NCBI RefSeq assembly: GCF_029227855.1
Contig: NZ_CP074356.1
DNA: 64,000 nt
Direction: 5' to 3' (one strand)
Source of the DNA: Escherichia coli
GTDB lineage: Bacteria; Pseudomonadota; Gammaproteobacteria; Enterobacterales; Enterobacteriaceae
Both the position numbers and the translations under genes were made by a program. Shown piece after piece: positions 28,711 through 30,168 of the stretch. The notes below the pieces were generated by a model. It was given only the letters and a program-made list of their open reading frames with translations, had not been told where the DNA came from and did not search any database. Position 1 is the stretch's first letter. The number at the start of each line of letters is the position of its first letter.

Positions 28711-30168
28711 CTATTTTTTAGCATTCGCATCCAGCGGGGCGGCATAACAGCTGTAAGAAAAACATTCGCTGGAATGATTGGCGATATCTTTAAAGTTGCT
28801 TTCAGCAACCCCCTCGAACATGAGTACCGTTCTGGACAACTCTCCGTTTTCATTTATATATGGAAAATCAAATTGTGTACTGAATCGCCATACATCTGTC
28901 TTTTCTGGCTCGCTGTTCACAGAGATACGTCGATGGAAGACTCCTCCTGAAAACGTGCGCCAGAACAATTGTTGATCAAAATCTTGTAATATCGCACACT
29001 TGGATGCTATTTGACGTAGTAAACCTGCATACCGTGGACTGCCATTACGAGCAACATTATACAAACCCTGACTAAAAGCATCAAACAAACAATAGATATG
29101 ATCACTAGTGAAAAAAGGTCTTAATTTTTTTTGTTCTTCATCGCTGTAATCCAGGAGCATCTCATTGATTTCTTCCGGTGAGAATTTTAAGACAAAATTA
29201 TCCTCAGGATTTGTTTCTTTCTTGTTTTTTTCACTATTCTTCTCCTCAATGGTCTTCGCATTTTGTTTCGCAATTTTTTTCGCATTTTCTTCCTCAGTTT
29301 TTTTCGCAATTTTTTCCGCAATTTTTTCCCGAGTTTTTGGTTTTAGACTAACACCATCGATGTCAACCGGTGTTGTTTTCAGATCTCTCTGCGCGTCTTT
29401 CAAATTTGTCTTATAGAGATCGGGCACTTTATCGGCAGATAAGTATCCGGATGAAGAAATCTGGTGTGTACGCATGGGGGGCTGTTCACAAAGCATCGAG
29501 GCTATATCGTCTTTAAACTCTTTTACATTAAAGTTATCGGCATTAACCTTCCCTGTTATAAACCCCGCATCGGCAATTTTCTTCTCTAATTGTTTTGTAC
29601 GTTTAGAATAATAAGCGTTGTTATCATAAAACTTTTCAAGAAGGGCCCACTCCTCAAGTTGCCTTATGTGATTTTTCAACTGTTGATGATCTATTTTATA
29701 TTCATGTGTACTAGAATCATTTTGGTTGCAGGGGTTACAGATTTTTAAGCATAATTTTCCATCATAATTATTATCTATGGTATCAGTGAAAATATAGGAC
29801 ACTTCAATACTCTGCCCGTTCTTATCAGTCATCTCATATGACCATTGCCCCGTTCGTTTCGCATTCTTAATGAGTTCGATGGACTCTGCAGGACAACCAT
29901 GAAGAATGGGCAGAATTTTATCAGGATGCTTAATGAGTAAAATTATTATATTTACAATGTTTGAAAAGAAATCTTTGCTATTTTTTATTTCATCGATTTT
30001 TTCCGCTGAAATGTTTACTAAGTTTTCATTTCCGGAAATGAAAAGCAATTTGCCATGGGGGCTTTTTTTAAATTGTTCTTCTGTTTTAGAAAAGACATCC
30101 TCTTTAAAAGGTGGCAACTCACTACCAGTAATAAATGGTTTCAATAAATTCGAATTTGAAATTGTCAT
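28711..30168 (-). CDS. hypothetical accessory protein, candidate EspY/SopD-like type III secretion effector
   Basis: 485-aa ORF in a visibly AT-rich segment between acpH and malZ; no signal peptide or transmembrane segments evident; internal lysine-rich repeat; family assignment is from memory and unverified. Confidence 0.65.
   Translation of the reverse strand: MTISNSNLLKPFITGSELPPFKEDVFSKTEEQFKKSPHGKLLFISGNENLVNISAEKIDEIKNSKDFFSNIVNIIILLIKHPDKILPILHGCPAESIELIKNAKRTGQWSYEMTDKNGQSIEVSYIFTDTIDNNYDGKLCLKICNPCNQNDSSTHEYKIDHQQLKNHIRQLEEWALLEKFYDNNAYYSKRTKQLEKKIADAGFITGKVNADNFNVKEFKDDIASMLCEQPPMRTHQISSSGYLSADKVPDLYKTNLKDAQRDLKTTPVDIDGVSLKPKTREKIAEKIAKKTEEENAKKIAKQNAKTIEEKNSEKNKKETNPEDNFVLKFSPEEINEMLLDYSDEEQKKLRPFFTSDHIYCLFDAFSQGLYNVARNGSPRYAGLLRQIASKCAILQDFDQQLFWRTFSGGVFHRRISVNSEPEKTDVWRFSTQFDFPYINENGELSRTVLMFEGVAESNFKDIANHSSECFSYSCYAAPLDANAKK
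29265..29340. repeat. imperfect tandem direct repeats of an 11-12 bp unit (CGCAATTTTTTC-like) encoding a KIAxK lysine-rich repeat
   Basis: Plus strand shows ...TTTCGCAATTTTTTTCGCATTTTC...TTTTCGCAATTTTTTCCGCAATTTTTTCC...; protein has EKIAEKIAKKTEEENAKKIAKQNAK. Confidence 0.6.

Follow-up and report, generated by a model that had tools for sequence, protein, structure and literature searches.

A 12-bp in-frame tandem repeat of variable copy number in an orphan gene between acpH and malZ of Escherichia coli

The convergent genes acpH and malZ of Escherichia coli flank, in the stretch of 64,000 nucleotides analysed here (contig NZ_CP074356.1 of assembly GCF_029227855.1; hereafter the window), a low-GC islet that holds a single open reading frame (ORF) of 485 codons. 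This ORF, which we call the orphan gene, is encoded on the minus strand and contains a tandem array of ten 12-bp units, each read as a block of four residues, and the number of these units differs from strain to strain without disturbance of the reading frame. We describe the array and its length classes, the probable mechanism of their origin and the selection that may have acted on them, the frameshifted alleles found at a homopolymer tract within the array, and the relationship of the locus to known systems of repeat polymorphism. The array is a previously undescribed coding variable-number tandem repeat (VNTR) of E. coli; slippage-driven in-frame repeat polymorphism as such is well known.

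The tandem array and its length classes

The array encodes residues 281-320 of the orphan protein, and its units read, in gene order, EKIA EKIA KKTE EENA KKIA KQNA KTIE EKNS EKNK KETN. It starts at base 841 of the gene, which is the first position of a codon, and every unit accordingly spans one four-residue block. On the plus strand the unit CGCAATTTTTTC, which is GAAAAAATTGCG in gene orientation, occurs exactly at 29305-29316 and 29317-29328, and in-register copies with one or two mismatches are found at 29269-29280 and 29281-29292. Tandem Repeats Finder called a period of 12 over 29255-29327 (6.1 copies, 80% matches, score 90), with nested higher-order periods of 24, 36 and 48 over 29224-29338. 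Identity at a lag of 12 nucleotides was 0.68 over 29221-29340, whereas shuffling of bases gave 0.37 and shuffling of codons 0.40, with 10,000 shuffles of each kind all staying below the observed value; across the whole window, lag-12 identity peaks at 29255, making this the strongest signal of its kind in the 64 kb. The 12-mer itself, with up to two mismatches allowed, is found 9 times in the entire window, compared with 12.4 occurrences expected, i.e. with no excess over chance, and the signal of the array hence lies in the in-register clustering of the units and not in the word.

A sequence-only reading of this DNA had drawn attention to tandem repeats of 11-12 bp at 29265-29340. Both tests bear out the repeats, with a period of 12 bp and not of 11-12, and the array overlaps that span, beyond which it extends about 45 nt further in the 3' direction of the gene, to 29209, and within which it stops at 29328. 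The translation given for the repeats, EKIAEKIAKKTEEENAKKIAKQNAK, is correct, and corresponds to residues 281-305, coded at 29254-29328. The coordinates of the array, of its parts and of the other features discussed below are collected in Table 1.

Table 1. Features of the orphan gene, its islet and related places in the window
Feature	Position	Strand	Basis or remark
485-residue ORF hosting the array	28711-30168	-	ORF list; RefSeq name 'hypothetical protein'
Low-GC single-gene islet flanked by the stop codons of the convergent genes acpH and malZ	28691-30353	.	GC profile; K-12 comparison
Whole 12-bp tandem array, ten in-frame units, residues 281-320	29209-29328	-	Tandem Repeats Finder, lag-12 test, 11 alleles parsed into units
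Variable part of the array, units 1-6, purest copies	29257-29328	-	DNA alignment of 12 alleles, unit decomposition, protein ladder
Degenerate 3' units 7-10, K[TS]IE EKN[SI] EKNK KETN	29209-29256	-	Number constant in all repeat-bearing alleles examined
A7 tract in unit 9 (T7 on the plus strand), frameshift hot spot	29225-29231	-	
A6 in variable units	29322-29327	-	
A6 in variable units	29310-29315	-	
A7 in variable units	29298-29304	-	
A7 in variable units	29274-29280	-	
A8 tract 3' of the array, longest homopolymer in the gene	29125-29132	-	
A_AAA_AAC heptamer	29224-29230		Zero-frame codons GAA AAA AAC
GAGGAG	29242-29247		11 nt upstream of the heptamer
CX3CX2C motif (C140-LKI-C144-NP-C147)	29728-29751	-	Invariant in 15 of 15 aligned alleles
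Antisense 83-residue ORF over the array	29165-29416	+	Probably no gene; translation judged by eye
Compound inverted repeat in the spacer between the malZ stop and the orphan gene	~30275-30320		Inner hairpin CAGC-GAAAAA-GCTG
acpH	28052-28690	+	Adjoined by queA
malZ	30354-32171	-	
523-residue ORF, probable EspY3 homologue	11732-13303	+	Pfam pentapeptide repeats PF00805, E=8e-15

That the number of repeats might vary between strains had likewise been proposed from the sequence, and the alignment of orthologues and counting of their units showed this to be the case. Repeat-bearing alleles contain 6-14 units and encode proteins of 469-501 residues, in size classes of 469, 473, 477, 481, 485, 489, 493, 497 and 501; a set of 120 database relatives fell into the classes of 469, 473, 477, 481, 485, 489 and 493 residues, outliers of 466 and 479 residues being left aside. 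Gene lengths among the matches were 1386, 1446, 1458, 1470, 1494 and 1506 bp, and those of the repeat-bearing genes (1446-1506 bp) differ by multiples of 12 bp only. The region between the conserved anchors of the protein spans 47, 51, 55, 59, 63, 67 or 71 residues, the steps being always of four. In a DNA alignment of 12 alleles, all the gap columns fall within the array, save for one 1-bp site, and the gains and losses of 12, 24, 36 or 48 bp are all confined to units 1-6.

Parsing at the level of the units revealed arrays that are textbook products of slippage or unequal exchange: 1) ETEC4075, with 13 units, in which EKIA-KKTE-EENA is doubled by a 36-bp duplication. 2) GF43, with 14 units, which contains a 36-bp higher-order repeat. 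3) M160133, with 9 units, in which a 12-bp deletion out of register has fused two units into a hybrid EKIA. The O157:H7 allele has 9 units, one fewer than the window allele, and the alleles of O145 and 14EC033 have 11. When 60 of the 1126 genomes with a match were sampled systematically and their alleles compared in length with the window allele, the sample contained 29 alleles that were 12 bp shorter, 19 of the same length, six longer by 12 bp, two longer by 13 bp (a frameshift), one each longer by 36 and by 48 bp, and two divergent alleles lacking the repeat.

The changes in length have recurred on identical backgrounds. Among the 132 full-length repeat-type proteins the array takes 40 different sequences and the flanks form 114 haplotypes; four of these haplotypes, each identical over the 422 residues outside the array, are associated with more than one array length, and one flank haplotype is found with three different one-unit deletions. 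Where the flanks are identical, the proteins are one or two units apart, and the independent events number at least five. In the O157 background, a 473-residue variant equals the common 481-residue protein minus 24 bp, with no other difference between them.

A further class of alleles at the same locus is devoid of the repeats. These encode a protein of 461 residues with 83% identity, occur on 730 contigs (examples are strain AHM21C2872I, L006:803-2188, and P0170) and account for about 3% of the complete genomes with the gene. In place of the array they have a non-repetitive and unrelated-looking linker of 32 residues, RHLADIIHVKCMREKNYTTDQGFELPEEVIHA. Because the start of this linker resembles one EKIAEII-type unit, comparison of the two sequences suggests that the array expanded from an EKIAEII-like seed of the kind seen in the repeat-less allele.

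Mechanism, encoded linker and selection

The explanation that we favor, and to which we assign a probability of roughly 85%, is that the array is an in-frame coding VNTR in which slipped-strand mispairing or unequal exchange of 12-bp units alters a probably helical linker by four residues per unit. The near-identical adjacent units would misalign in replication (slipped-strand mispairing) or recombine unequally, and either event would result in the gain or loss of whole multiples of 12 bp; we infer slippage from the shapes of the indels. Steps of this size always leave the reading frame intact, and make the protein longer or shorter by 4, 8, 12 or 16 residues. The restriction of the changes to the six purest units, with the four degenerate units remaining constant, is exactly what a misalignment dependent on sequence identity predicts. 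The number of repeats would in turn determine the length of the linker, by about 0.6 nm per unit if it is helical, given that an alpha-helix rises by 1.5 Å per residue.

The composition of the encoded segment has a clear register: positions 1 and 2 of the units are occupied by E or K, position 3 by I, N or T, and position 4 mostly by A. Residues 277-320 include no glycine and a single proline, Pro277, which precedes the first unit. AlphaFold2, run on the full-length protein with a shallow alignment of 15 sequences, placed helices at residues 277-304 and 307-312 with a predicted local distance difference test (pLDDT) score of 60-76, which is among the better-scoring stretches of the model. On this prediction, the array probably forms a helical linker that connects an N-terminal region (residues ~1-275) with a C-terminal region (~330-485). 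The C-terminal domain modelled alone had a pLDDT of 51.1, and both models are too poor for a comparison of folds.

Several observations weigh against this explanation or against parts of it. The helical linker is taken from a model with a mean pLDDT of 41.6, and E and K make up only 52% of the 40 array residues, so that the segment is no canonical ER/K single helix. Within clones the array is stable, with the same length in 18 of 18 O157:H7/O55:H7-type rows of the sample, and 296 genomes match the array region of the window at 99% or more; it is therefore a slowly evolving VNTR and not a hypermutable one. Furthermore, nucleotide diversity is 0.086 in the array versus 0.032 and 0.043 in its flanks, and the ratio of nonsynonymous to synonymous substitution rates (dN/dS) of the array is 1.4-3.6 in the three comparisons in which it could be computed, the saturated repeat-less allele being excluded.

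These last two values bear on whether the array is under selection. We lean towards the view that most of its length variation is near-neutral, representing a tolerated linker polymorphism as against an adaptive tuning of length. The alternative shares the mechanism set out above and differs on selection: the array would be a selected 'molecular ruler', a spacer or a variable epitope, subject to diversifying selection by a target in a host or a competitor. We consider it possible, if doubtful. The higher diversity and dN/dS of the array could indicate diversifying selection, and the comparison with O157, with 8 nonsynonymous and 0 synonymous changes, as well as the multitude of distinct array sequences among the 132 proteins, point in the same direction; so does the retention of at least six units in all repeat-type alleles, from which the four distal units have never been lost. 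However, these substitution counts are tiny, and alignment within the repeats is ambiguous and inflates the apparent number of substitutions. Values of dN/dS are high throughout the gene (0.3-1.7 in pairwise comparisons outside the array), so that the array is not clearly special in this respect. Nothing indicates export or surface exposure of the orphan protein, and the allele that does without the repeat is common.

The gene as a whole is also dispensable, since it is missing from about 79% of the complete genomes, is frameshifted in the O145:H28 lineage and is partly deleted in the O55:H7 strain USDA5905. In the last case (L017, locus 1094-2834) a strain-specific deletion has removed the 3' end of malZ together with ~1100 bp from the start of the orphan gene, and both genes are annotated as partial pseudogenes. 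Judged by its sequence variation, the orphan protein is weakly constrained, and the frequency of its loss and decay argues against a selected ruler or spacer. Polymorphic sites are about as frequent at codon position 1 as at position 3, an uncommon pattern among chromosomal E. coli genes whose frame is kept open.

Frameshifted alleles and the coding status of the gene

The sequence-only reading had also noted homopolymer runs of 6-8 nt within the repeats, and had suggested that indels in such A/T runs might produce frameshifted alleles. Two A6 and two A7 runs do lie in 29265-29340, and the sole 8-nt run lies outside it. At these four A6/A7 runs no 1-bp indel was found in the 12 aligned alleles. 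Frameshifting was found at the A7 tract of unit 9, likewise outside that span: the only 1-bp indel of the alignment converts this A7 to A8 in the O145:H28 strain RM12581 and the O145-type strain C325, whose genes are labelled 'frameshifted' in RefSeq, with a stop at codon 325. A 91-nt probe for the A8 allele is matched at 100% by 26 complete genomes, which are mostly labelled O145 and come from many laboratories. By its sequence, the gene is a pseudogene in the O145:H28 lineage by virtue of a +1 slip at A7, an ordinary homopolymer hot spot of mutation.

The opposite change, a -1 allele with A6 and a product of 322 residues, was seen in 17 contigs, from drafts or from Logan, with an O157 background. 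It is absent from all of the 388 complete genomes matched, the closest 317 of which (O157-type) all have A7, and two of the four A6 contigs that were examined have additional homopolymer deletions resembling sequencing errors. The suggestion of frameshifted alleles is therefore right in kind, and borne out in part. Separately, the A8 run 3' of the array is an A7 in two draft O157 contigs (L014 and L015), both with other homopolymer deletions, and this state is probably a sequencing error.

Opposite frameshifts at a single tract raise the prospect of a phase-variable contingency locus, in which slippage of the homopolymer would switch the gene on and off reversibly within populations. A reversion would also be compatible with RM12275-C1, a strain of O145-type background that has A7 and an intact ORF and differs from RM12581 by one SNP (single-nucleotide polymorphism) in 3 kb. 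A7 is found in one genome among the 27 O145-type alleles, and in RM12275-C1 it may be the retained ancestral state, a reversion or an undercall of the homopolymer by long reads. We nevertheless hold phase variation to be improbable. The tracts of well-documented phase-variable genes are usually of 8-9 or more G/C, or of longer A/T, and an A7 is short relative to these; one whole lineage is fixed for the OFF state instead of being mixed; and the distribution of the -1 allele, along with the unchanged length of the other four A6-A7 runs in the 12 alleles, counts against it too. The frameshifts at this tract look lineage-fixed, unlike those of phase variation within a population.

Unit 9 also contains a conserved A_AAA_AAC slippery heptamer in the correct phase. 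The stimulators of dnaX-type sites resemble a Shine-Dalgarno (SD) sequence and lie about 10-14 nt upstream; here an SD-like GAGGAG is located 11 nt upstream, and is simply two Glu codons in an E-rich segment. A slippery heptamer is what the orphan gene shares with programmed -1 sites of the dnaX type; the downstream stimulatory structure of such sites was not found in it. The next 90 nt have a folding energy of -12.6 kcal/mol (z=+0.46), and 131 of 200 shuffles fold as well or better. We rate a dnaX-like -1 frameshift site as very unlikely. If a -1 slip did occur, it would yield a truncated isoform of about 325 residues, consisting of the N-terminal domain and the helix, that would be the constitutive product of the O145:H28 A8 allele. 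A broader conjecture, which makes the array an adjustable helical spacer under selection, within an Escherichia-specific exported or host-interacting protein, and adds a ribosomal or transcriptional -1 slip at this heptamer, is equally hard to credit.

Next we consider the host gene. In K-12 the stop codons of acpH and malZ are separated by 4 bp with nothing between them, and the islet is hence a single-gene accessory insertion; its GC content is 31-40% (~35%), versus 50-58% in the neighbouring DNA. Of 5426 complete E. coli genomes, 1127 have the orphan gene by megablast, always on the chromosome and in a single copy, except for one genome with two matching places, and it is annotated "hypothetical protein" in every match listed. 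The protein had no match above threshold in Pfam, NCBIfam, the PDB sequences, PHROGs or PADLOC. Weak matches to Cas7/CT1975, QRICH1 and DUF3700 were rejected, being all located on the low-complexity array and below the cut-offs. An exhaustive HMMER search of 1.84 billion representatives clustered at 50% identity recovered one full-length cluster, its own, and otherwise fragments only; the source records of the protein, which belong to E. coli, Shigella dysenteriae and Escherichia sp., are all named "hypothetical" or "uncharacterized". On these sequence searches, the gene is restricted to Escherichia/Shigella. In the literature, searches on the neighbouring genes, on VNTR terms and on the accessions of the proteins returned nothing about this locus or these proteins.

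With such a profile, the possibility has to be weighed that the ORF is spurious, and that the array is a non-coding feature such as an AT-rich minisatellite, e.g. one with phased A-tracts that affect DNA shape or the binding of H-NS. The coding signature is indeed weak, with 69, 46 and 68 polymorphic sites at codon positions 1, 2 and 3 and a dN/dS near 1 in some comparisons; the confinement of the homologues to Escherichia/Shigella, the poor AlphaFold2 model and the recurrence of A6-A7 tracts every 12 bp would be consistent with this possibility too. Yet a stop-free run of 485 codons, in DNA of 35% GC, stands against a mean of 68 and a maximum of 161 codons in 2000 shuffles, and the frame is open in all allele classes, up to a protein divergence of about 17% and including the repeat-less allele. 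Codon position 2 is the least polymorphic, and the C-terminal ~75 residues are nearly invariant. Planar bending by A-tracts requires phasing with the helical repeat of ~10.5 bp, and a period of 12 bp is out of phase with it. A non-coding feature is, on this evidence, a very unlikely explanation. That the length differences are artefacts of sequencing or of mis-assembly of a low-complexity repeat, as the error-like homopolymer deletions of L014 and L015 might lead one to suspect, is scarcely credible, given that the array of 72-168 bp (6-14 units) is below most read lengths, that the exact 12-bp classes track lineage and are repeated across hundreds of finished genomes of diverse laboratory origin, and that the alleles differ by clean rearrangements of units.

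Some additional features were observed in the islet. The protein contains a CX3CX2C motif that is also present in the repeat-less allele and which, from its sequence, may be a metal-binding site; its spacing agrees with that of the radical-SAM cluster motif, and no match of the orphan protein to a radical-SAM family was obtained. Just 3' of malZ there is a compound inverted repeat, CAGCCCTGACA ... TGTCAGGGCTG, which could, by its sequence, be a terminator or an element resembling the repetitive extragenic palindromic (REP) type. A scan of the islet for promoters and terminators found sites no more numerous than in shuffles. The antisense ORF over the array was rejected as a Phe-rich by-product of the poly-T strand.

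Significance and comparison with known systems

Taken as an in-frame coding VNTR, the array falls into nine size classes and is present in about one in five complete genomes. It would be usable as a coarse lineage marker, and the A8 frameshift of O145:H28 type would provide a simple lineage-diagnostic character. It would also flag an Escherichia-restricted orphan that evolves rapidly, tolerates linkers of 32-72 residues and is inactivated in one or more lineages of enterohaemorrhagic E. coli (EHEC). No concept is altered by the finding, which amounts to ordinary coding repeat polymorphism in an unstudied gene.

The gene had been termed effector-like from the sequence, a label that finds no support: the protein has no match to a family or structure, no WEx5F motif, no pentapeptide repeats and no EspY3-like similarity. 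EspY3 (ECs0472/Z0521, OI-26) begins with MKTTH and shows both WEx5F and pentapeptide repeats, and the primer used for its cloning begins with ATGAAAACCACTCAC (PMC6313403, PMC8565820). The orphan gene resembles this SopD-family type III secretion system (T3SS) effector of EHEC in forming a low-GC single-gene islet and in being present in O157:H7, where the published coordinates of EspY3 are near the region of the orphan gene; the two places are ~15-17 kb apart in the window. Upstream in the window, the 523-residue ORF with Pfam pentapeptide repeats has WNKIRDFF, a WEx5F-like sequence, at residue 37, and by its sequence is probably this strain's homologue of EspY3. In the orphan protein, a regular-expression search found no WEx5F, Pfam gave no Pentapeptide or SopD match, and BLASTP against the EspY3-like ORF detected no similarity (E=0.28); an identification of the orphan gene with EspY3 was consequently rejected.

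Other known systems resemble the array in different respects. Charged helical spacers built of short repeats include ER/K single alpha-helices, domain II of TolA and the needle-length ruler YscP, whose repeat number differs between Yersinia strains. The array would be similar to these by analogy, in its E/K/A-rich units free of Gly and Pro, its predicted helicity, its place between two other regions and its stepwise length; it differs in having I, T or N at every fourth position, sequence similarity to them was not found, and nothing points to a role as a ruler. From the ER/K helix it is set apart by its E+K content, and by i/i+4 pairs that include 8 of opposite charge and 7 of the same sign among 36. 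The simple-sequence contingency loci of Neisseria, Haemophilus and Campylobacter share with the orphan gene a homopolymer within the ORF and truncating +1 and -1 alleles; they differ from it in that the tract of the orphan gene is only 7 nt long and its OFF state is lineage-fixed.

The bacterial coding VNTRs, including the loci used in multiple-locus VNTR analysis (MLVA), come closest in form. The 6-bp MLVA loci used in outbreak typing evolve faster than the array, which is stable within clones such as O157:H7, and the host gene is here an uncharacterised orphan. With the coding VNTRs the array has in common head-to-tail units of a multiple of three nucleotides, a frame that is kept, a copy number that differs between strains, changes located at the purest units, and the recurrence of these changes on identical backgrounds.

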